64,000 bases of DNA from Ardenticatenia bacterium. Lineage in GTDB: Bacteria > Chloroflexota > Anaerolineae > 4572-78 > NAK82. A model generated the notes under the pieces. The model was not told the DNA's origin and did no database searches. It worked only from the letters and a program-made list of their open reading frames with translations. Positions 2,076 to 60,750 of the stretch are shown here, one piece after another. The stretch's first letter is position 1; the number at the start of each line of letters is the position of its first letter. A program made the translations under genes and the position numbers. The DNA lies in the NCBI GenBank assembly GCA_003130875.1, contig QEXY01000108.1, positions 3,806 through 67,805 of the forward strand, in the 5' to 3' direction.

Positions 2076-4619
2076 TCAGCGCCGCAATTCCGACACCTGG
2101 AGTGCCGCACGCAGCACCACCTTATCATCCAGCACCTCACCTGTGGCACTCACCACGGGCAGCCGCTCCCGAGTGACCGGGTCATACATTCCTACGAATA
2201 GGTCGAACGCGCCTGCCGGCATCTCGCGTGGCAGGGGAACGCGCACCGGATCTACCACCACCTCACCTGCCTGCCAGTTGTGAGTCGGGTAGGCGCCATC
2301 ATCCGGCATCGTGTCGCGCTGAGTCAGGAGACGCTCCTCGCCTGCCTCCATCCTGTCTATCACGTGGACGAAGACGGTATAATCTTGCGGCATATCCTGC
2401 TGTGCCTGCCAATATAGAACCATGCCAAACCAGCAGGCCGTTGTCACGGTTATGCTAGTTTCGTCTCCGCACGTCGGCAGCTGCAGATCGTAACCCACTA
2501 AACGTATCAAATTACCCAGTGAAGCATTCACCTGATATTGAGGACGCGGCACCTGCCACAGGCGTTCCACTGGCCCTCCCTCCGGCATGCCGAACACCTG
2601 GGAGAAACGTGCCAGCTCCAACAACGTTCCCTCGCTGGGCAGGCGCAACGCATAGCGCGCGTCCGCGACGGGGTGTGGCGTCAGCCGTATGCCGGGTTGC
2701 CATGGATCACGCCCGCGCATCACTCCCAATGCCAGGCGAAATGCGGACATATCTCGCGTGTACCATGGCAAGGTGTTGAACACAATGCGCACCCGTTCAC
2801 CCACCTGCCAGCGGCTCGTCGGATGCCAGACGAGTGCAGGCTGATCCACTGTTGTGGCACCGCGTGGAACACCCCACTCATCTAACAGGTACAGGGCAAT
2901 GAATAAATCCTCGTCCAGCGGGCGCAACGGTTCCATCCAAAGCACGACTTGCACCTCTTCGGCGCGATTGAAGCGCAGGTCGAAGCCCGCCAGGCGCAGC
3001 GCATCACCGAAGCTGGCCATAATGGGATGCTGCGGCAGAGCATCCTCCGCACGGGCGAAGTCAGTGAACGCCGGTGGCAGCTGATCGGGTTCGAGCGGCG
3101 GTGCCGAGGGCGTCGCGCGCAACAACAGGAAACCGTCCTCGGCAACCAATGGCTCCCATCCTCCTTGTTTGAGCAGCGCTATGATCACCTGGCGTTGGAA
3201 GTCATCCTGGTTGACCAGCGTGGAGACGTCGAACAGAAGATAATCGGGGGGTGGCAGCGTGCCGTCATAACAGCACGGGCCACCCTGCAGGAGCGCGGTG
3301 AGCAGCTGCGGATCGTAATACAGGACGCGCCTTCCGCTGACATGCGGGTTCAGATTGCTTTGGGCGAAAAGTGCCGCTTCGGGCGGTATTTGGGCGAAGA
3401 CCTCCTGAGCGCGGTGCGCGTGGGCGGTCACCGACGGCAGGCGGAACGGCCGTGCTAGGGGCGAGAAGCCCCGCGCATAGTGATAACCCAACGCACCGAT
3501 GAACAGCCAGGCACATGTGCCGAGCAAGACGTAGCGGGTGGCGGTGCGCCAACAGCGGGCGATGCGCATTCCCACCGCACGGATGCCCCACAGCGCCGAG
3601 ATGAGCACAAACGGCGTCAGCGGTGCCGCATAATGGAACTCTTCCAGCCGCCAGGTAAAGGGATTATCGCTGAGCAAGTTAATCGCCAGCGTGGGCAGCG
3701 TGGGCAACCAGGTCAGCGGGCTGAGTGCCGCCAGCAGGCCGGTGGGCAGCAACAGACCGCCCAAGTAGGCGGGCAGGTTGGCACGCTGCCATATGTGCTG
3801 CCACACCACTTCGGGGCGCTGCAGCAGAGTTCCCACCATCTCGGGCAGGTCGCGGCCCAACCAGGCATAGCGCACTGCCTGAATGTTGCCGCCGGTGGGG
3901 CTGAAAATGGGCTGCACTACGCTCAGCGCCACGACAAACCAGACGATGCCGCCCAGCAAGGCGGGCAACCCGAAACGCCAGCGGCGCGTCACCAGCGCAT
4001 ACAAGCCGAGCGATGCCACCGTCAGCGCCATGTCTTCTTTGCACGCCATCGCCAGCACCGCTGCCAGGGCAAAACGGCCAGGACGACGCGTTTCCAGGTA
4101 GTAGAAGGCGAACAGCAGGAAGGTGGGCGCCAGCGTGACGGCGTGGAAATCATACAATATAGCAGCTTCCAGCGCCGGCATGAGCAGGTAGGCGAGCGGG
4201 AAGACCAGTGCCAACCATGCCCCGACGCGACTGCCCACCGCTCCCCCTACGGATTCGTCTTGCCACAGTGCCCGTTGTGCCAGCCGGAACAGCGGCCATG
4301 CGCCCAGCCCCACCACGGCCGCCTGCACGAGCAGCAGCGCCACCGGGCCGCCCAGCCCCAGCCAATAGAATGGCACGAAGAGCAGCAGGATCGGCTCGAC
4401 GTGCAGCGCCAGCCGGTTGCGCAGCGGCGCCATATTGGTGAAGGCCATGAAGTCGCCATGGGCGGTGTTCCAAAGCGCCTGGTCGACGTTGCCCAGGTCC
4501 ATTCCGTTGCTCTCCAAGGCGAAATGGCGCTGGACGGCCAGGAAAGCGAACGTTACCACGAAGGTGACGCTCAGCAAGCCCAGCACAATGTGGGGCGCGT
4601 TTCTCCTGATTGCCCTCAT
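2076..4619 (-). CDS. DUF2079-like polytopic membrane protein with two C-terminal copies of the recurrent YWQA/YTVFVH domain
   Basis: Start moved to ATG 4617-4619 (MRAIRRNAPHIVLG...), which forms an ATGA overlap with the upstream stop. The first 150 codons of track ORF 2076..5069 are Arg/Gly-rich read-through of the neighbouring gene. NGMDLGNVDQALWNT and multiple TM segments recall DUF2079. Confidence 0.7.
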   Translation of the reverse strand: MRAIRRNAPHIVLGLLSVTFVVTFAFLAVQRHFALESNGMDLGNVDQALWNTAHGDFMAFTNMAPLRNRLALHVEPILLLFVPFYWLGLGGPVALLLVQAAVVGLGAWPLFRLAQRALWQDESVGGAVGSRVGAWLALVFPLAYLLMPALEAAILYDFHAVTLAPTFLLFAFYYLETRRPGRFALAAVLAMACKEDMALTVASLGLYALVTRRWRFGLPALLGGIVWFVVALSVVQPIFSPTGGNIQAVRYAWLGRDLPEMVGTLLQRPEVVWQHIWQRANLPAYLGGLLLPTGLLAALSPLTWLPTLPTLAINLLSDNPFTWRLEEFHYAAPLTPFVLISALWGIRAVGMRIARCWRTATRYVLLGTCAWLFIGALGYHYARGFSPLARPFRLPSVTAHAHRAQEVFAQIPPEAALFAQSNLNPHVSGRRVLYYDPQLLTALLQGGPCCYDGTLPPPDYLLFDVSTLVNQDDFQRQVIIALLKQGGWEPLVAEDGFLLLRATPSAPPLEPDQLPPAFTDFARAEDALPQHPIMASFGDALRLAGFDLRFNRAEEVQVVLWMEPLRPLDEDLFIALYLLDEWGVPRGATTVDQPALVWHPTSRWQVGERVRIVFNTLPWYTRDMSAFRLALGVMRGRDPWQPGIRLTPHPVADARYALRLPSEGTLLELARFSQVFGMPEGGPVERLWQVPRPQYQVNASLGNLIRLVGYDLQLPTCGDETSITVTTACWFGMVLYWQAQQDMPQDYTVFVHVIDRMEAGEERLLTQRDTMPDDGAYPTHNWQAGEVVVDPVRVPLPREMPAGAFDLFVGMYDPVTRERLPVVSATGEVLDDKVVLRAALQVSELRR

Positions 4620-11629: not shown

Positions 11630-11719
11630 GAGGGTGTTGAAAAACTCTTTAGTTACCCGCTTTATTGACCCATTTTCCTATGAAAATCTGAGCGGTCAAG
11701 GGACTTTTTCAACACCCTC
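11630..11719 (+). mobile_element. 90-bp MITE-like element, copy 1
   Basis: Terminal inverted repeats GAGGGTGTTGAAAAA ... TTTTTCAACACCCTC. Near-identical to 60626..60715 (same orientation) and 25306..25395 (inverted). No flanking direct repeat at this copy. Confidence 0.85.
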
Positions 11720-11732
11720 ATGCTGATCCCTC

Positions 11733-11761
11733 TTGCATATGATGTTGAAATATGGTATCAT
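11733..11761 (+). promoter_or_regulatory. Putative sigma-70-type promoter of the CHAT cassette
   Basis: TTGCAT (11733-11738), 17-nt spacer, TATCAT (11756-11761), about 140 nt upstream of the CHAT start. Confidence 0.4.
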
Positions 11762-20966: not shown

Positions 20967-21283
20967 CGCTGTGCGCTCACCCATCTGCCTTGCGCAGCCT
21001 TGCAAAGCTGGACGGATATGGCGGGTGTCGCCCGTCCAGCAAAATACCCGATGCTATCATACACTTCCCGAGCAGGCGGTGCAACCGGGGTGTATTTCAA
21101 ATTTGGGGGCGGGTTGAGCGGTAACCCAGAGTCACGAGGGTTGTCCGGGCCGCGACCGTCGGGCAGCGCTGCAGGGGCGATCGGATGATTGTCCCCACAA
21201 CCCTCCTCAAAAGTGAAAGGCACGCGTGCAACCAGCCGCGTGCGTTTTACACCTGCACGGTCTCCGCTATAATCGTTCTCGAT

Positions 21284-22411
21284 ATGCGCCCTCGAGAACG
21301 GAAAGCGCTGCATCGCACCTACACCGATCCTGGAGAGCACTCTGAGAAGGATGTTCGCGTGTCCATCATCACCGAGCGCGCTGTGTGGCAAGAGTTCGTC
21401 GCGCGCCATCCCGCCGGGCATCTGCTGCAAACCTGGGATTGGGGCGAGCTCAAGGCACGCTTCGGCTGGCACGCCATCCGCATCGCATTGACGGATGAGA
21501 CGGGCAGTCCATCCGCCGGCGCCCAGGTGTTGCTGCATCCATTACCGGTACCGGGCGGACGTGCTCTTGCGTACGTCCCCAAAGGCCCGCTGGTGGACTG
21601 GCACGATCCGATCCAAGCCGGACGCCTGCTCGACGCGATTCATCCGCTGTGTCGCGCCCAACGGTGCATCTTCCTCAAGATCGAGCCACCAGCGGAAGAC
21701 GACGCGGCCCTGTGTGCGGCCATCGCGCAGTATGGCTTCCGGCCCTATGCGCCGACCGTACAGCCACCGCGCACCATCCTCATCGACCTGAGCTTCTCCG
21801 AGGAAGCCATCCTGGCAAGGATGAAACAAAAGACACGCTATAACATCCGCCTGGCAGCGCGCAAAGGGGTGCGAGTATACGAGGGGCATGCCGACCATGT
21901 GGCAGTGTTCTATCAGCTGCTGGAGGACACCAGTCGGCGCGACCATTTCGCCATTCACCATTTTGACTACTACCGCACCGCGTACGAGCTCTTCGCGCCG
22001 CACCATGCGGCGCTCCTGTTGGCCGAGGTGGCAGGTGAGGTGGTCGCCGGCCTGATGGTGTTCACCTATGGGCGGACGGCCTACTACCTCTTCGGCGCCT
22101 CAAACGATCGGCATCGCGAGCACATGCCCACCTACCTGCTCCAGTGGGAGGCGATGCGCTGGGCACGCGCACGCGGCTGCACCGCGTACGATCTGTGGGG
22201 CATACCGGATGCAGAAGAAGAGACGCTGGAAAGTCATCTCGCCCACGCGGATCGCCGCACTGGGGAACTATGGGGGGTCTATCGCTTCAAACGCGGTTTT
22301 GGTGGCCAGGTGGTGCGCAGTGTGGGCGCTTTTGATTACGTCTATAATCCCTTGCTCTATCGCCTCTATCGCTGGTGGCAAGTGTTGCGGCGCCGCGCGT
22401 ATACAGGATGA
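21284..22411 (+). CDS. FemAB-family peptidoglycan bridge-forming aminoacyltransferase, paralogue 1
   Basis: HLLQTWDWGELK..AYVPKGP..MKQKTRYNIRLA..YYLFGASND..MPTYLLQWEAMRWA..YDLWG. The start is uncertain: ATG 21284 was chosen, and a later GTG is possible. Confidence 0.75.
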   Translation: MRPRERKALHRTYTDPGEHSEKDVRVSIITERAVWQEFVARHPAGHLLQTWDWGELKARFGWHAIRIALTDETGSPSAGAQVLLHPLPVPGGRALAYVPKGPLVDWHDPIQAGRLLDAIHPLCRAQRCIFLKIEPPAEDDAALCAAIAQYGFRPYAPTVQPPRTILIDLSFSEEAILARMKQKTRYNIRLAARKGVRVYEGHADHVAVFYQLLEDTSRRDHFAIHHFDYYRTAYELFAPHHAALLLAEVAGEVVAGLMVFTYGRTAYYLFGASNDRHREHMPTYLLQWEAMRWARARGCTAYDLWGIPDAEEETLESHLAHADRRTGELWGVYRFKRGFGGQVVRSVGAFDYVYNPLLYRLYRWWQVLRRRAYTG

Positions 22412-23511
22412 ACCCGATGGCAAACGGTCAGACCAGCTGTCAAGTCATACCGGTCGCGGACCGGGAGGCATGGGATTCTGCCCTGTTGCAACTCCCCCGC
22501 CCACATGTGCTCCAGACATGGGATTGGGGGGCGTTCAAAGAGCGTTGGGGATGGCAAGCCACGCGCTGGCTCTGGCTACAGGCGGGCCGGCCGGTGGCGG
22601 CAGCCCAGCTGTTAAGGCGTCGCCTGGGGCGCATGCCCCTCTCGATCGTCTATGTGCCCAAGGGTCCTTTGTTCGACATCGCCGAATTGGCCTTGTGGCA
22701 GGCCGTGCTCGCCGCGCTGGAGGCCGAGGCACGTCGCGGCGTGCTTTTCGTCAAGATCGACCCCGACGTGCCGCTCAACGCCGCAGATGAGGGTATGGCA
22801 ACGCCGCCGGACATCACTGCCATCCGCGACCTGCTCCGACGGCGCGGCTGGCGTCTTTCCGCCGAGCAGATCCAGTTCAAGAACACGGTGCTGCTCGACC
22901 TCACCGCCGACGAGGAGACCCTGCTGGCGCGCATGAAACCCAAGACACGCTACAACATCCGCCTCGCCGCGCGGCGCGGTGTCGCGGTACGCCCAGGAGG
23001 ATCGGAAGACCTGGCCGCCTTCTATCATCTCTATCGTATCACGGCACAGCGTGATGGATTCATCATCCGGCCGTTCGCCTATTATCGCGACGTGTGGTCG
23101 CAGTTCCTCGCCGCCGGGCGCGCCCACCTGTTGCTGGCCGAGCTGGAAGGACAGCCCATCGCCGGACTGCTTATGTTCGTCTTCGGTCACACGGCATGGT
23201 ACATGTACGGCGCTTCGGACAACGCCCATCGCGAGCGGATGCCCAGCCATCTGCTGCAATGGGAGGCGATCCGGCTGGCCAGACGACTGGGATGCACCCG
23301 CTACGACATGTGGGGGGCACCGGACCGGCTGGACGAAAGCGACCCGATGTGGGGCGTTTATCGTTTCAAAGCGGGATTTGGCGGCCAGACGGTACTCGGT
23401 CTGGGCGCCTGCGACTTCACGACCTTCCCAGTCGGGTATTATCTCTACACCGTGGTGATGCCGCGTCTGCTGGCGGTCATGCGCATGACCGCCAGAGCGG
23501 CTGCCGTTTGA
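22408..23511 (+). CDS. FemAB-family peptidoglycan bridge-forming aminoacyltransferase, paralogue 2
   Basis: Same motif set as paralogue 1 (VLQTWDWGAFK..VYVPKGP..MKPKTRYNIRLA..WYMYGASDN..LLQWEAIRLA). ATG 22408 forms an ATGA overlap with the paralogue 1 stop. Confidence 0.8.
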   Translation: MNPMANGQTSCQVIPVADREAWDSALLQLPRPHVLQTWDWGAFKERWGWQATRWLWLQAGRPVAAAQLLRRRLGRMPLSIVYVPKGPLFDIAELALWQAVLAALEAEARRGVLFVKIDPDVPLNAADEGMATPPDITAIRDLLRRRGWRLSAEQIQFKNTVLLDLTADEETLLARMKPKTRYNIRLAARRGVAVRPGGSEDLAAFYHLYRITAQRDGFIIRPFAYYRDVWSQFLAAGRAHLLLAELEGQPIAGLLMFVFGHTAWYMYGASDNAHRERMPSHLLQWEAIRLARRLGCTRYDMWGAPDRLDESDPMWGVYRFKAGFGGQTVLGLGACDFTTFPVGYYLYTVVMPRLLAVMRMTARAAAV

Positions 23512-23555: not shown

Positions 23556-23931
23556 CTATAGTTTGCTCAGTCGGTCGAGAACCTGCTGTGCCATCTCTAT
23601 ATCGAGCGCGACCATCTTATCCAGTCCGGACATCTCATCATCGTAATCCGCCCTGTTGCGATCGATGCGCAGTCGGTTCAAATAATGACCAATCTGCTGG
23701 CGCGTGACATCGGCGCTTTCGCGGAAGCGATCCCGCACACAGGTATGCACCTGTGCTTGGGGCAGAGGTTCGTTTCCCCGATCACAGGTGATTGCGTGCC
23801 TGACAGAAGGCGGCGTAATAGGCGCGGCTCAGCGCCGAACGCAACCGCGCTTCCTTTCATGCTACGATCATTCCAGTTTGACCACTCAGCTCTTGAGCCA
23901 GCGCAAAATATTCTCCCCAGTCGAAGATCAT
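23556..23931 (-). pseudogene. HEPN-like small protein gene, disrupted by an in-frame TGA and one frameshift
   Basis: Hand translation gives MIFDWGEYFALAQELSGQTGMIVA, then TGA (23857-23859), then KEAARLRSALSRAYYAAFCQARNHL. The frame breaks at about 23782-23786. It then continues as DRGNEPLPQAQVHTCVRDRFRESADVTRQQIGHYLNRLRIDRNRADYDDE...SKL, which is track ORF 23556..23750. Its ATG overlaps the upstream stop (ATGA). Confidence 0.7.
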
Positions 23932-24401
23932 CGATACTCCAGATGGATGCACAGTTTTCCCTGGCTGGAGTGTGCCGCCTGAAACCACCAAGCCCGATCA
24001 AACTGCTCCAGCCGGGCAAGTGCCTCATGTGGTTCGAGATTGGTGCGGATGAAGGCAACCAGCTGCCGCTCGTCGGTCTCTTCCGGGTCATACACCACTT
24101 CCAACACCACTTCGGATGGTCCAAAAAATCGGACGATATAGGAATATGCCTCCTCCAGCAGCGGTAGTAGAAAGGGATACGCTTCCAGAAAGCGGATGAT
24201 TTCCTCTTCGCCTCTCCAGAGATAGTGTTGTCTGAGATGCGCAGCCAGAAGATCGCGTGTGCGTACAATGGAAGGTTCCCACTGGAGCCGCGGCCACAGG
24301 ATTTTTTTGAGCTCGGATGAAACGGCGGGGCCATAGGAAAAGGCAACCTGCGCTGTTCCCAATGCTGCCGGCATTGCCCAGGCAATGGTGCAATCTGTCA
24401 T
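23928..24401 (-). CDS. Hypothetical 157-aa protein, the only intact middle gene of the decayed three-gene operon
   Basis: Start at ATG 24399-24401 (MTDCTIAW...), overlapping the TGA of the reconstructed upstream pseudogene. Its stop overlaps the ATG of the HEPN-like pseudogene. C-terminal half is EEIIRFLEAYPFLLPLLEEA..LEVVYDPEE..FDRAWW. No family recognised. Confidence 0.6.
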   Translation of the reverse strand: MTDCTIAWAMPAALGTAQVAFSYGPAVSSELKKILWPRLQWEPSIVRTRDLLAAHLRQHYLWRGEEEIIRFLEAYPFLLPLLEEAYSYIVRFFGPSEVVLEVVYDPEETDERQLVAFIRTNLEPHEALARLEQFDRAWWFQAAHSSQGKLCIHLEYR

Positions 24402-25149
24402 ACCCCTTCCACCTCCCCAAACCTCTCGCGCAGTCGCTCGGTGATACACGCTTCAAAAGCGGCCTCGATGTGGGCGTGGGGCAATCTGCACCCACTCGAA
24501 GGCGGAATCCAGAGAGACTTGACCGGGTTTTGCCAGAGAACAGTCGAGATCCAGGATAGCAGTGAAGACAGCAGGCCTCTCAGCTGCAGCGCGCGTCAAC
24601 TCCAGTTGGAGCATGTCACGTCCGTGCTCAAAGGGGACCTGAATGCCCAAGATAAACGGGCCATCGTTCTGAAGCAAAGCAGCGCCAACGTGGGGTCGAA
24701 AGGTGAGGTATTCGTCTAACACGACAGGCTCGCCGGGGATCTCAATGCAATTGACATAGCGCAACCCGATACGCTGGATATTCTTCGGGTGTGCCACCGA
24801 GCAGTACGCGTCAAAACCTTTGCGGATCAAGGGCAGGAATTCCTGCCAAGTTGGATAGGGTTTCAGATGGTTGACGGCCAACAGATGGGGCCCCACTTGA
24901 ACAAGCGCGCTCATCCTCGCGGAGGAAGTGCATCAGCTCCCCTGCCGTCACCGTTTGTTCCACTCCGACAGGACTGCCCGTGACGTGCGTGCGGAAGACT
25001 TTCGTCATCCGTTTTTGAGGAAAGGTGTCTCGCAGCTGCTCGTATACCAAGCCAGGGACGGTCAAGTCCCAGGAAGAGGTGGGGTCGAACTGAAACTCGC
25101 ACAGCGCCTCAATCACAGGGGGATTGCGATATTTCCTGCTCACGGGCAA
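24398..25149 (-). pseudogene. TIGR04255-like family gene, disrupted by at least two frameshifts
   Basis: The N-terminal part (M)PVSRKYRNPPVIEALCEFQFDP... lies in the frame of track ORF 24811..25293. The middle part ALVQVGPHLLAVNHLKPYPTW..IGLRYVNCIE.. is track ORF 24453..24914. The C-terminal part ..HAHIEAAFEACITERLRERFGEVEGV lies in a third frame and ends at TGA 24398-24400. Start is TTG 25147-25149 behind AAAGGAGAAG. Confidence 0.65.
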
Positions 25150-25305
25150 ATCTTCTCCTTTTCCTGGATTGACCCCGGTTTCACAACGGAATAACACCAC
25201 AATCAGCGCCCCGTATAGTGCCGCGGACACCGCTGCACCAGCGCTATGTCCACCTAACACACGAGGATATCCTACCACACCCGTACGAAGCAAGGCAAGA
25301 TACCT

Positions 25306-25395
25306 GAGGGTGTTGAAAAAGTCCCTTGACCGCTCAGATTTTCATAGGAAAATGGGCCAATAAAGCGGGTAACTAAAGAGTTTTTCAACACCCTC
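25306..25395 (-). mobile_element. 90-bp MITE-like element, copy 2 (inverted relative to copies 1 and 3)
   Basis: Same 15-bp terminal inverted repeats. The interior is the reverse complement of copy 1 with one mismatch. It is flanked by the perfect 7-bp direct repeat GATACCT (25299-25305 and 25396-25402). Confidence 0.9.
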
Positions 25396-25510
25396 GATAC
25401 CTGATCTCGGAGGCACATTTCGAATCGGGGGCGAACTGAAAACAGCAACCGTCAGGAAGAGCATTCCACAGTTTGCGCACGCAGGACAGTCCGACTTCAC
25501 CCCCCCACAC

Positions 25511-25544
25511 ACAAAAAATCCCGTGGACTGCCATAGTCCACGGG
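25511..25544 (-). terminator. Rho-independent terminator (minus strand)
   Basis: Perfect 10-bp stem CCCGTGGACT / AGTCCACGGG (25520-25544) with a 5-nt loop, followed on the minus strand by ATTTTTTGTGTG. Confidence 0.75.
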
Positions 25545-25606
25545 AGGCACACTTAAAGAGGAGCACGATGGGCGCGGGTTCGTCCCATCACGCTCATCTC
25601 TACGGG
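25512..25606 (-). ncRNA. Candidate ~95-nt small RNA (promoter, two hairpins, U-tract)
   Basis: On the minus strand there is an extended -10 TGcTATAAT (TATAAT at 25613-25618). The first hairpin (25561-25595) has a 12-bp stem with 10 Watson-Crick and 2 G-U pairs on the minus strand only; the same positions are A-C mismatches on the plus strand. A CU-rich linker follows, then the terminator hairpin. The ends are estimates. Confidence 0.45.
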
Positions 25607-25638
25607 ATTCCCATTATAGCACAAAATTGCGACCTTTT

Positions 25639-25682
25639 GGTTTGAATCCGGTTAGAATTTGGTTAGGATTTGGTTTGAATCA
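25639..25682. repeat. Four tandem 11-nt phased direct repeats
   Basis: GGTTTGAATCC / GGTTAGAATTT / GGTTAGGATTT / GGTTTGAATCA, contiguous. They lie between the divergent sRNA-candidate promoter and the promoter of the 25751 gene. Confidence 0.8.
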
Positions 25683-25750: not shown

Positions 25751-28714
25751 ATGGTATCTGCGACGGACAACCAACCGCCTTCCCCGATGAGGGCTGCGAG
25801 GGCATCGGATGCCGCATCAGCTGCAGCCTCTTCAGCGCGCCGCGTCGACGCAGGTCTGCTGGTTGCTCTGCTCCTGACACTGTTTGCCATCTGGCCGCTG
25901 CTGGCCCACCGCGGCCTGCCCAACACGGCGGACGGGGCGGTGCACCTGATGCGTCAGGCGGAGCTCAACCAAGCCTGGAAGGATGGCATCCTGTATCCGC
26001 GCTGGGCGCCGGACCTGGCATATGGATACGGTATGCCCCTCTTTCACTACGCGCCGCCGCTGCTCTATCAGGTGACGCAGGGGTTGCATATGGCGGGACT
26101 ACCCCTGGATGAGGCGATGAAAAGCACTCTGATCATGATGGTGCTGCTCTACAGCACGGGCAGCTATCTCTTCGTGCGGGATGTTTTCAGCCCACGTGCG
26201 GGAGTGCTGGCGGCTGCCACGTACTTATATGCCCCCTACCGTCTGCGTGAGCTCTACATCCAGGGCAATTACGGTCAGTTCTGCGGGCTTGCCTTCTACC
26301 CGCTTATCCTGTGGGCGTTCTACCGCAGCGCCACCGACCGGTCACCACGCTATCTGCCGCTGGCAGGGCTGGCGTTGGCGGGGTTGTTGCTGAGCCACAA
26401 CATCAGCTTCATGCTGTTCGTCCCCCTGTGGATGGGTTATCTCGCCTACCTGCTCCTGTTTGGCGCGCCGGAGATGCTGGGACGGAGGACGGTGGTGAAG
26501 CGTTTCGTCCTGGCCGGCGTCTTGGGACTGGGGCTCGCTGCCTTCTTCTGGCTGCCCGCCTTCGCCGAACGCGATGCGATCCGCCTCGCCGGCATCACCA
26601 CTGGTTTCTTCGATTTTCGGCGCAACTTCATCGGCCTGGACGAATTGCTCGCCCTGCCGCGCCCGCTTGACCAGGCAGCTGTCAATCCCTACTTCCCGCT
26701 GAGCCTGGGCGCCTCACAACTGGCGTGGGCCGGACTGGCGCTGGTGAGCTGCCTTGTGTGTCTATCGATCGGGCTGGGCCACTTCCTGGTCCGTGGAACC
26801 GTCCCGGACAGGAAACCCCTTGAATGTCCTGCGGACCGACACCTGAGCGGACACGTCCTCTACTTCGGCGCTGCCTTGCTGGTGTATGGCTTTCTGATGC
26901 TTCCCGAATCGCAGCCCTTATGGGAGGCAGCGCCTCTGCTTGAACTGGCCGAGTTTCCCTGGCGTATGTTAGGGCCGGCGGGGTTATGCGCCGCGGTGCT
27001 GGCCGGCGGATGGGTCCATCTGTGGGAAAGGTGGTTTGCTTCCGCTGCCTTGTCCCAGCGCGCCGGCCGCGTCGTCCTGGTCATCGGGCTGGCGCTGACC
27101 CTGGCCGCCCATCTGTTTTACTTCTTTCCCACCCAATTCATCGCCTGGGGTACGCCCACCCCCGACGACGTGATGGCCTATGAGCGGCGTTCTCGCGCCA
27201 TCGGCACCACCAGTACCGGCGAATTCCTGCCGCGCTGGGCAGAGCGGCACCCTTCGCCCGACGTGCTGGCGCCCCCACAAGCGAGCGACGAGCTCGCCCC
27301 GCGGGTCGAACCGCTCTCCCTGCCAGAAGGCGCCCGCACCAGGACGCTGCAGGTCACCGCGCACCAGATCCTGTTGTACGTCAACAGCCCAAGGGATTTC
27401 ACCGCCACCTTCCGGTTGTTGTACTGGCCTGGCTGGCAGGTGTGGATCCGGCAGCTGCCCGATGGAGCATGGCAACCGGTGACAGAGGTCGAGGTCACCC
27501 GGCCGGATGGACTGATGCGCGCACCGCTGCCCGCCGGCGAGATCGAGGTCTTACTCCGTTTAGAAGAATCCCCCCTGCGCCGTTTCAGTGCGTGGGTTTC
27601 TCTACTGGCTGCCATCGCGTGCGCCGGGATCGTGCTCTGGACACGGCTGCACCCCACCACAAAATCGCAGCGCGCGGTTGCTACATCCCCGGACGCGCAT
27701 CCCCGACCGACCCTCCGCACGTATCCGCGGCGTGAGGCGTTGATCCTTGCGTCCGGCCTTCTGGCCGCCGTGCTGGCAATTCGCCCCCTCGAAAGCTGGC
27801 TGCGCGTTCAATCCCCACCCGGCAGTGTGGTGGGCGTGGAACACCCGCGCCGGGCGACCTTCGCCGACCAGGTGCACCTGTTGGGATACGACCTGCCGTC
27901 CTGCAGCCAATGGTGGACGCCAATCCGCTGCACCATGCCCGCAGACGAAGCGCTTCCGGAGATCCTCGCCCAGCCGGGCGAAACGCTGCGCGTCGTGCTC
28001 TACTGGCAGGCGCTGCGCCCCTTGGAACGCGACTACAGCGTGTTCCTGCATCTGAACGGGCTGGATCAGCGCACCTATGCCGGCGACGATGAGGTGCATC
28101 CGGACGACATCCCCACTTCCTCCTGGCCGCCGACAATGTACGTGCGCAATCCGATGCGCCTGGTGTTGCCGGCAGACGCCCCGCCGGTGCGTTACACCCT
28201 CCAGACAGGCCTTTATCTCCGAGCCAATGGAAAACGGCTGCATGCCGCGGAGTGCGCCTGCAGCGAATTTCCGCTCGCTTACGTCTGGCTGCTGCCGGCG
28301 GCTCCGCTCACCGAGCAGGATATCCCGAATCGGCTGGGGTATCGGCTGGGCAACACGATTCAGCTGCTCGGCTACCAGCTCGAGCGGTCGCCCGACCGGC
28401 TGACCCTCTATTGGCGCACCGATCAGCGCCAGGTCACCCGTTACACTGTCTTCATCCATGTGTACGACGCGCACGACCACATGATCGCCCAGGCGGATTC
28501 GCCGCCGTTCGGTGGTCTGTACCCCACCGATGCGTGGCTGCCGGGACAGATCATCGCCGATCTCCATACCCTTGCGCTGCCGGCGCAGGCTCACATCCTG
28601 CGCGTGGGTCTCTATGACCTATCCAGCATGCAACGCCTGAGCGCCACCGGTCCGGACGGACAGCCGGCCGCGGAGGACGCCATTGTGATCCCGATCGCCA
28701 ATGCCGAGCTCTAG
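25751..28714 (+). CDS. Giant polytopic membrane protein (PTPS-related/COG5617-like, GT-C-like) with two C-terminal copies of the recurrent domain
   Basis: 987-aa ORF. N-terminal block ADGAVHLMRQAEL..GILYPRWAPDLAYGYGMPLFHYAPPLLY recalls the '6-pyruvoyl-tetrahydropterin synthase-related' membrane family. Domain copies lie at about 27858-28290 and 28343-28711. The start could instead be Met13. Confidence 0.7.
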   Translation: MVSATDNQPPSPMRAARASDAASAAASSARRVDAGLLVALLLTLFAIWPLLAHRGLPNTADGAVHLMRQAELNQAWKDGILYPRWAPDLAYGYGMPLFHYAPPLLYQVTQGLHMAGLPLDEAMKSTLIMMVLLYSTGSYLFVRDVFSPRAGVLAAATYLYAPYRLRELYIQGNYGQFCGLAFYPLILWAFYRSATDRSPRYLPLAGLALAGLLLSHNISFMLFVPLWMGYLAYLLLFGAPEMLGRRTVVKRFVLAGVLGLGLAAFFWLPAFAERDAIRLAGITTGFFDFRRNFIGLDELLALPRPLDQAAVNPYFPLSLGASQLAWAGLALVSCLVCLSIGLGHFLVRGTVPDRKPLECPADRHLSGHVLYFGAALLVYGFLMLPESQPLWEAAPLLELAEFPWRMLGPAGLCAAVLAGGWVHLWERWFASAALSQRAGRVVLVIGLALTLAAHLFYFFPTQFIAWGTPTPDDVMAYERRSRAIGTTSTGEFLPRWAERHPSPDVLAPPQASDELAPRVEPLSLPEGARTRTLQVTAHQILLYVNSPRDFTATFRLLYWPGWQVWIRQLPDGAWQPVTEVEVTRPDGLMRAPLPAGEIEVLLRLEESPLRRFSAWVSLLAAIACAGIVLWTRLHPTTKSQRAVATSPDAHPRPTLRTYPRREALILASGLLAAVLAIRPLESWLRVQSPPGSVVGVEHPRRATFADQVHLLGYDLPSCSQWWTPIRCTMPADEALPEILAQPGETLRVVLYWQALRPLERDYSVFLHLNGLDQRTYAGDDEVHPDDIPTSSWPPTMYVRNPMRLVLPADAPPVRYTLQTGLYLRANGKRLHAAECACSEFPLAYVWLLPAAPLTEQDIPNRLGYRLGNTIQLLGYQLERSPDRLTLYWRTDQRQVTRYTVFIHVYDAHDHMIAQADSPPFGGLYPTDAWLPGQIIADLHTLALPAQAHILRVGLYDLSSMQRLSATGPDGQPAAEDAIVIPIANAEL

Positions 28715-60625: not shown

Positions 60626-60715
60626 GAGAGTGTTGAAAAACTCTTTAGTTACCCACTTTATTGGCCCATTTTCCTATGAAAATCTGAGCGGTCAAGGGAC
60701 TTTTTCAACACCCTC
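60626..60715 (+). mobile_element. 90-bp MITE-like element, copy 3
   Basis: Same orientation as copy 1. The left TIR has one mismatch (GAGAGTG...). It is flanked by the perfect 7-bp direct repeat ATAGATT (60619-60625 and 60716-60722). The left repeat contains the DUF1848 TAG stop, and the right repeat abuts the nusA -35 box. Confidence 0.9.
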
Positions 60716-60721
60716 ATAGAT

Positions 60722-60750
60722 TTGCAATTGCCACCACAGAGTGATATAAT
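60722..60750 (+). promoter_or_regulatory. nusA operon promoter
   Basis: TTGCAA (60722-60727), 17-nt spacer, TATAAT (60745-60750). Confidence 0.6.

Follow-up and report, generated by a model that had tools for sequence, protein, structure and literature searches.

Within a 64,000-nucleotide stretch of DNA from an Ardenticatenia bacterium (contig QEXY01000108.1, positions 3,806 to 67,805; hereafter the window), three overlapping minus-strand genes at positions 23556 to 25149 correspond, in order of transcription, to a TIGR04255-family protein (G1), a small unnamed protein (G2), and a HEPN protein (G3). Comparison with other genomes showed that this triad is a genuine, conserved, and translationally coupled module, and the copy in the window is a case of ordinary genome decay. 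We think it probable that what has recently decayed here is a conserved and horizontally mobile TIGR04255/G2/HEPN-T module in which the HEPN protein would be a toxin, G2 its antitoxin, and G1 a component acting on G2. The three genes were assigned as follows.

24398 to 25149, minus strand: G1, pseudogene of the TIGR04255 family, from three-frame translation and a hidden Markov model (HMM) match.
23928 to 24401, minus strand: G2, intact open reading frame (ORF) of 157 amino acids, from translation.
23556 to 23931, minus strand: G3, HEPN pseudogene (UPF0332/AF0298-like HEPN-T type), 125 amino acids if joined.

A preliminary description of this DNA had proposed three minus-strand genes linked by ATGA overlaps, and three-frame translation recovered both of them. 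The G1/G2 junction is the ATGA at 24401-24398, which includes the G2 start codon (ATG, 24401-24399), and the G2 stop codon (TGA, 23930-23928) overlaps the G3 start codon (ATG, 23931-23929) in the ATGA at 23931-23928. The middle gene was found as an uninterrupted ORF of 157 amino acids, again as described before.

The conservation of the module was assessed in 44 metagenome loci collected via G2 and in 80 loci collected via G1 from species-representative genomes. The 80 G1 loci had the following arrangements.

G1, G2, HEPN: 59 loci, and 1 more that is probable.
G1, 119-amino-acid protein, VapC-like PIN protein (Pfam PIN, E = 4e-14; NCBIfam VapC): 6 loci.
G1, 110-amino-acid protein, 183-amino-acid unknown protein: 4 loci.
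Other arrangements: 4 loci.
Contig ending straight after G1: 6 loci.

The order G1-G2-HEPN was thus present in 60 of the 74 evaluable loci, which bears out the earlier view of a co-occurring triad, and 10 of the 74 carried the "119 aa-PIN" or "110+183" cassette instead. The triad occurred in many bacterial and archaeal phyla; the G1 loci came from Chloroflexota, Verrucomicrobiota, Nitrospirota, Acidobacteriota, Bacillota, Bacteroidota, methanogenic archaea, and others, and the spacing between the G1 stop and the G2 start was +1, -3, or 0 nucleotides in 55 of 74 cases. A HEPN gene directly followed G2 in 93 of 104 G2 occurrences, with the exceptions being mostly contig ends or decayed copies, while G1 was directly upstream of G2 in about half of the 44 metagenome loci. 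In the metagenome loci with enough sequence, the HEPN gene was directly downstream of G2. Additionally, some loci (L015 and L024) had two or three tandem G2-HEPN pairs without G1. Overall, G2-HEPN is the core pair, and G1 is a frequent but facultative third partner.

In a neighbor-joining tree of G1 sequences, the PIN group and the "110+183" group (type C) each formed a single clade nested among HEPN-type loci, which indicates that the cassette was swapped while G1 stayed. In 22 of 129 loci, the module, present as the triad, the G2-HEPN pair, or a type-C cassette, was located inside a type III restriction-modification (R-M) operon, with the Mod methyltransferase gene on one side and the ResIII helicase-nuclease gene on the other, all on the same strand and with gaps of mostly 2 to 19 nucleotides (L002, L003, L010, L050, L052, L074, L103, L104, and others). 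Small, adjacent, co-directional genes with the presumed antitoxin first and a mobile, sporadic spread over phyla fit the layout of type II-like toxin-antitoxin (TA) systems, as do the ATGA overlaps, the tandem arrays, and the low-GC islet in the window. A TA-like or defense-like nature, as suggested in the preliminary description, is supported by the HEPN partner, the exchangeable toxin cassettes that include VapC/PIN, and the frequent type III R-M nesting. A literature search on tripartite TA systems and HEPN proteins found nothing describing the TIGR04255-G2-HEPN triad. Apart from the HEPN and PIN types, the two-gene cassettes after TIGR04255 included others (L096, 4404-5277, L104, L113, and L127; L077, 4634-5508; L093, 6757-7815); their last genes, either of a 183-amino-acid type with an IMTQSCDL motif or of a 124- to 131-amino-acid type, had no family match and may be unrecognized toxins.

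The assignment of the third gene as HEPN-like, made earlier on condition that a TGA and a frameshift be read through, was supported when the joined G3 was aligned end to end with 79 homologs, nearly all of which are 125 amino acids long. Many of these homologs are labeled "UPF0332 family," and some, including several close ones, have a precomputed match to the Pfam HEPN family PF05168; the joined window protein itself scored 17.6 bits against PF05168 (E = 0.0045), under the gathering score of 22 bits. A profile of the G3 family matched solved HEPN structures, namely, 9xbd/9xbc (E = 2e-7), the HEPN protein of retron-Kva2 (E = 0.012), and 2hsb (AF0298, UPF0332; E = 0.096). One of 9xbd/9xbc was deposited as a Y>F variant, with Phe where the G3 family has a conserved Tyr, and a literature search for these two PDB codes found no relevant paper. 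In PADLOC and PHROGs, G3 gave only a weak generic HEPN_IX match and one PHROG of unknown function. The invariant residues of the family are R36, A37, Y38, Y39, H63, D96, and Y97. Its motif region reads R-I-D-R-N-K/R-A-D-Y, that is, an Rx4-6H motif without the His, with the invariant His63 upstream and an invariant RN..DY; the invariant Tyr97 is beside the active-site motif, in a register that differs from RX4HXY. The AF0298-like HEPN-T and AbiV proteins also have no Rx4-6H His and have an upstream His, and an alternative active site has been proposed for them (Anantharaman et al., PMC3710099). Similarly, the "Class II" HEPN/MNT toxins (PF05168) are without RX4H and keep a Tyr that could be adenylylated (Yao et al., PMC7641770).

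G2 consists of a poorly conserved N-terminal extension (residues 1 to 50) and a conserved alpha/beta core (residues ~55 to 157), and across the family the conserved core is ~105 amino acids long and always C-terminal. An AlphaFold2 model was confident for residues ~50 to 157 (pLDDT of ~90), with three helices, a beta-hairpin, a long helix, and a final strand, and disordered for residues 1 to 40. G2 had no match in Pfam, NCBIfam, PADLOC, or PHROGs, and the comparison of its model with the PDB by Foldseek gave nothing significant (best E = 0.015, TM score of ≤0.34). A word-indexed search returned 7 relatives only; an exhaustive profile search returned 3,680 clusters at 50% identity with E ≤ 1e-3, including 1,826 with E ≤ 1e-10. 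We also considered that G2 might be a diverged MNT and rejected this because it has no GSX10DXD motif; neither was there any nucleotidyltransferase (NTase) family match, PDB sequence match, or NTase fold match.

Joined over its three reading frames, G1 (248 amino acids) matched the NCBIfam model TIGR04255 at 133.5 bits (E = 1.1e-38; curated cutoff, 30 bits) over profile positions 1 to 252 of 252, and in this the earlier reconstruction of a TIGR04255-like protein from three frames was confirmed. The joined protein aligned without internal gaps to intact homologs of 247 to 248 amino acids, and there were 709 homologs, the best with ~62% identity. Some 25 residues do not vary among the homologs, and many of these are polar (E12, C15, D26, D77, R129, Y130, N132, Y202, H223, and E231). 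The predicted model of a 62% identical homolog (P0088; pLDDT of 87, pTM of 0.84) shows two beta-alpha-beta4-alpha units in tandem, and a double TBP-like fold is predicted accordingly. The best PDB matches of the model, with AdoMetDC/prozyme at E = 7e-5 and TATA-binding proteins at E = 2e-3, had low TM scores of ~0.3 and included no SecB match, and in BFVD it matched giant-virus TBP-like proteins and one unnamed protein (TM scores of 0.44 to 0.53). No G1 match was found in PADLOC or PHROGs, and the literature searched contained no mention of TIGR04255 and no function for it.

In the account that we favor, G3 would be an RNA-targeting HEPN toxin of the AF0298-like kind, a reading that takes HEPN/MNT systems as its model and draws on sister modules in which VapC stands in place of the HEPN protein. 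G2 would be the protein antitoxin of G3, in the place held by MNT in classical HEPN/MNT pairs; this role is suggested by where G2 is encoded (upstream) and how large it is, by the occurrence of stand-alone pairs and tandem arrays, and by one fusion to AbrB. G1 would be a third component that acts on G2 via the N-terminal extension, since a long extension is present only with G1 and the logic is that of the chaperone-addiction extension in toxin-antitoxin-chaperone (TAC) systems. It could serve as a sensor or trigger that controls toxin release or, alternatively, as a stabilizing partner, as in chaperone-dependent tripartite TA systems. The copies embedded in R-M operons hint that part of the family is linked to restriction in a PrrC-like manner; PrrC is a HEPN anticodon nuclease in an R-M locus and is held in check by EcoprrI.

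Several points weigh against this account. Because the canonical Rx4-6H His is absent from G3, its RNase activity is presumed, and it is from sequence and analogy that we infer toxicity, neutralization, and binding for members of the three families. G2 has no recognizable antitoxin fold or DNA-binding domain, bar the one unlocated fusion to a MazE/AbrB antitoxin domain, found in 1 of 148 family members. The stretch before the G2 core had a median length of 74 amino acids with G1 and of 20 amino acids without G1, but both lengths are upper bounds, because each G2 was assumed to begin at the earliest start codon of its longest ORF. The invariant polar residues of G1 would suit the pocket of an enzyme or of a ligand-binding protein better than a passive chaperone. 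Finally, two loci (L120 and L128) have a broken G2 beside a whole G3, which is unexpected for a strict toxin/antitoxin pair.

A wider generalization can be offered only tentatively, and we would give it somewhat less than even chances: TIGR04255 might be a common, hitherto unrecognized third component of modular TA/defense systems. With its double TBP-like fold, it would dock on the N-terminal extension of the protein in the antitoxin position and thereby control toxins that can be exchanged, whether AF0298-type HEPN, VapC/PIN, or one of two or more unknown types. The modules, repeatedly nested in type III R-M operons with mod on one side and res on the other, would there add a second layer of defense coupled to restriction.

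An unlikely alternative, though one to be taken seriously, is that G1 is an enzyme that chemically neutralizes or arms the toxin, replacing the MNT adenylyltransferase, with G2 as an adaptor that joins enzyme and toxin and not as the antitoxin itself. HEPN proteins of this Pfam type are normally paired with an MNT that AMPylates the conserved Tyr (PMC7641770), and G3 keeps Tyr97 and has no MNT partner; the many invariant polar residues of G1 and the presence of an enzyme fold, AdoMetDC, among the best matches of its model would also agree with this idea. However, those fold matches are weak, and G1 is found as well with a PIN toxin and with two unrelated cassettes, contrary to what toxin-specific chemistry would predict. 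Moreover, the conserved G2-G3 pairs without G1 indicate that G1 is not essential for neutralization of the toxin.

Slightly less probable still is the possibility that the module is no autonomous TA system but an accessory of type III R-M systems, a second-line effector restrained by the R-M proteins and freed on their inhibition, of which the window copy would be a stranded remnant. The tight, same-strand insertion between mod and res described above agrees with this, and a clustering of HEPN-T genes with R-M operons has been noted (PMC3710099). In contrast, more than 80% of the loci, including the window and its orthologous locus, have no R-M genes nearby and are found among housekeeping genes (e.g., FemAB, PriA, UvrD, and TIM), and the tandem G2-G3 arrays resemble ordinary TA arrays.

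Returning to the favored account, in which the block in the window is a decayed TA-like module, both outer genes carried two lesions each. G1 starts at GTG 25143, or alternatively at TTG 25149, with AAGGAG at 25160-25155. Its first frame reads VSRKYRNPPVIEALCEFQF...FLREDERA to ~24903, its second LVQVGPHLLAVNHLKPYPTW...FEWVQIA to ~24479, and its third HAHIEAAFEACITERLRERFGEVEGV*, ending at the TGA at 24400-24398, so that its coding sequence is interrupted by two frameshifts; the largest called fragment is 153 amino acids long (P0151). Alignment to homologs placed the first lesion, a net loss of 2 nucleotides, at ~24902-24903 (gct[ct]cttgtt > gcttgtt) and the second, one extra C, in the C-run at 24478-24481. 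Beyond the frameshifts, residues that are otherwise invariant, or almost so, have been replaced in the joined G1 (Y202>C, Q72>H, and consensus R133>C). G3 reads MIFDWGEYFALAQELSGQTGMIVA, followed by the TGA at 23857-23859, then KEARLRSALSRAYYAAFCQARNHL, with a change of frame at 23784/23785 and its end at the TAG at 23558-23556. The TGA is a nonsense mutation (GGA>TGA) of a codon that specifies Gly in the orthologous locus described below, and the frameshift is a net loss of 2 nucleotides (ctg[cg]tgat > ctgtgat).

As an independent check, we used Logan contigs of a public DNA run (X1, ~7-fold depth) and of a metatranscriptome run (X2). The X1 sequence was near-identical to the window, with three A>G differences (24106, 24196, and 24816) and a 115-bp deletion (24381-24495) without an obvious flanking repeat, which takes out the 3' end of G1 and leaves G2 without its start codon and first 7 codons. 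In microbial-mat metatranscriptomes, RNA contigs of low depth covered portions of G1 and G3.

The triad has a GC content of 56.1%, compared with 63.7% and 64.6% in its flanks, in agreement with the earlier observation of an AT-richer block, and the GC content at third codon positions is 0.59 in G2 versus 0.77 to 0.78 in neighboring genes. The history of the block could be followed through L130, a 1,342-bp contig from another run with 80% nucleotide identity to the window over 1,329 bp, which contains the 3' part of G2, G3, and the convergent FemAB gene, with G2 and G3 intact. The FemAB protein encoded beside the block (22375-23511) has 89% amino acid identity in L130. The presence of the pair at the same site indicates that the module was already there in the common ancestor and is no new arrival, and a recent acquisition is thereby ruled out. 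The composition of the block is nevertheless still foreign. In comparison with L130, dN/dS was 0.22 for G2, 0.15 for G3, and 0.15 for FemAB, with dS of 0.5 to 0.8. The low value for G3 points to purifying selection during most of that time, and thus the lesions are recent.

Decayed copies were also found at L039, L041, L107, L114, L123, and L128. A broken HEPN gene with a whole G2 was seen five times (the window, L041, L114, L123, and L129a), versus two cases of the reverse (L120 and L128). Separately, four metagenome contigs (L019, L020, L022, and L023) carried a G2 homolog with an in-frame stop and no HEPN gene following (in L019, at ~3665-3979); these are another decayed lineage of the module.

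Upstream of G1, the miniature inverted-repeat transposable element (MITE) mentioned in the preliminary description was delimited as follows.

25306 to 25395, no strand assigned: MITE, 90 bp, from its terminal inverted repeats and target-site duplication.

The element has 18-nucleotide terminal inverted repeats (GAGGGTGTTGAAAAAGTC) and a 7-bp target-site duplication (GATACCT, at 25299-25305 and 25396-25402), and it lies 157 bp upstream of the G1 start. Two other near-identical copies are in the window (11646-11735 and 60642-60731; approximate, minus strand), making three. In X1, its depth was 3757 compared with ~7 in the flanks (~500-fold), and contigs broke at its ends; it was abundant among mat metatranscriptome contigs as well. 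Short, noncoding, bounded by inverted repeats and a target-site duplication, and present in many copies, the element is a MITE. Beyond it, upstream of G1, is a strong terminator hairpin on the minus strand (25545-25519), and no sigma-70-like promoter site was found on the minus strand between this hairpin or the MITE and G1. The module in the window would thus be dead, with its toxin and G1 broken and with the MITE and the terminator between the block and any upstream promoter.

The preliminary description had further proposed that, while the module was disarmed, the central gene was kept, possibly to serve as an antidote or adaptor. G2 is indeed the sole intact ORF of the three, and the low-level RNA contigs over parts of the block might be taken to speak for such a role, but we regard it as improbable. 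G2 makes up 30% of the block, and the chance that four lesions all miss it is ~0.24; its dN/dS is not below that of the broken G3; the X1 strain is without the G2 start codon and the coupling site; and the MITE and the upstream terminator leave G2 with no evident promoter. The uneven count of decayed copies, five versus two, does not alter this, and selective retention of G2 found no support in the lesion spread, in dN/dS, in X1, or in the other decayed loci, so that this part of the preliminary description was not upheld. G2 in the window is probably an unexpressed leftover that has not yet been mutated.

X1 contigs spanned the TGA, the 23784 deletion, and the 24903 deletion gap-free in agreement with the window, and an RNA contig of X2 spanned 24903 gap-free in the same manner. 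Three of the four lesions were thus confirmed in independent contigs, while the extra C at 24478-24481 falls inside the X1 deletion and was in no other indexed run. Among the positions at which assembly indels had been suspected, those near 24900, 23858, and 23784 were upheld as true lesions and the one near 24470 was not covered, and the earlier statement that both outer genes are inactivated agrees with these data. The idea that sequencing or assembly errors account for the stop and the frameshifts, in genes that are in truth intact, is therefore very improbable and is rejected for three of the four lesions: the extra C does sit in a homopolymer that could be checked in no other data set, but the other three recur in the independently assembled X1, two of them are 2-nucleotide deletions and one is a substitution, with no typical error type among them, and the substitutions at conserved G1 positions and the additional 115-bp deletion of X1 affect the same block.

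The block is flanked on the G3 side by the convergent FemAB-family gene (22375-23511, plus strand) and on the other side by a gene for a large membrane protein (PMT_2/PTPS_related; 25751-28714, plus strand). The FemAB-family gene is one of a tandem overlapping pair of the peptidoglycan interpeptide-bridge type (21185-22411 and 22375-23511) that adjoins the block. Upstream of the MITE, we observed a candidate small RNA gene on the minus strand (25510-25625), with an extended -10 box (TGCTATAAT) at ~25622-25614. The RNA would be ~100 nucleotides long, with a long hairpin and, as its end, the 11-bp GC-rich terminator hairpin (25545-25519) followed by a T-run, and its folding had a minimum free energy of -49.8 kcal/mol (z = -5.3). 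It had no Rfam match and no RNA contig in the checked runs, and it was missing from related loci. Direct repeats like AACCAAAT(C/T)CTAACC are located upstream of it, at ~25640-25680.

The window copy is of little importance in itself, and its value is as a pointer to an uncharacterized family, for which it is a reasonable lead. The "thermophile-type" UPF0332 HEPN proteins are among the commonest TA-like genes, and their partners have been assumed to be MNTs. Our results show that a large subfamily of UPF0332-class HEPN proteins pairs with a different partner, G2, with ~3,700 clusters at 50% identity and no known fold. Additionally, the position of TIGR04255 before HEPN, PIN, and other cassettes, together with the R-M nesting, suggests a general control component for toxin effectors.

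Among known systems, the Class II HEPN/MNT pairs (PF05168 with PF01909; type VII TA) are similar in that G3 is a HEPN protein of ~125 amino acids with no Rx4-6H His, an upstream His, and a Tyr by the RN motif, and in that its gene comes second in a tightly coupled pair of small genes that is mobile and sporadic. They differ in that the G2 partner is not a nucleotidyltransferase (no GSX10DXD, no NTase Pfam match, and no MNT fold match) and in that a third gene, TIGR04255, is usually present here. The TAC systems, in which a SecB-like chaperone accompanies HigBA, MqsRA, or HicAB, likewise combine a constant third protein with exchangeable TA cassettes, and the protein in the antitoxin position likewise has an extra terminal extension only alongside the third protein. 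However, G1 is predicted to have a double TBP-like and not a SecB fold, it is encoded first and not last, the extension is N-terminal, and a chaperone role would be assigned by analogy. PrrC/EcoprrI resembles the 22 of 129 related loci in which a HEPN module is within an R-M operon, whereas here the R-M system is type III and not Ic, the HEPN protein is small and stand-alone without an ABC ATPase, and the window and most other copies are outside R-M loci. With VapBC (PIN) type II TA systems, the window copy is not of the PIN kind, no known VapB domain is present in the 119-amino-acid partner, and the pair comes after G1; the likeness lies in the six TIGR04255 loci that have a VapC-like PIN protein as their third gene, directly after the 119-amino-acid protein in the antitoxin position.

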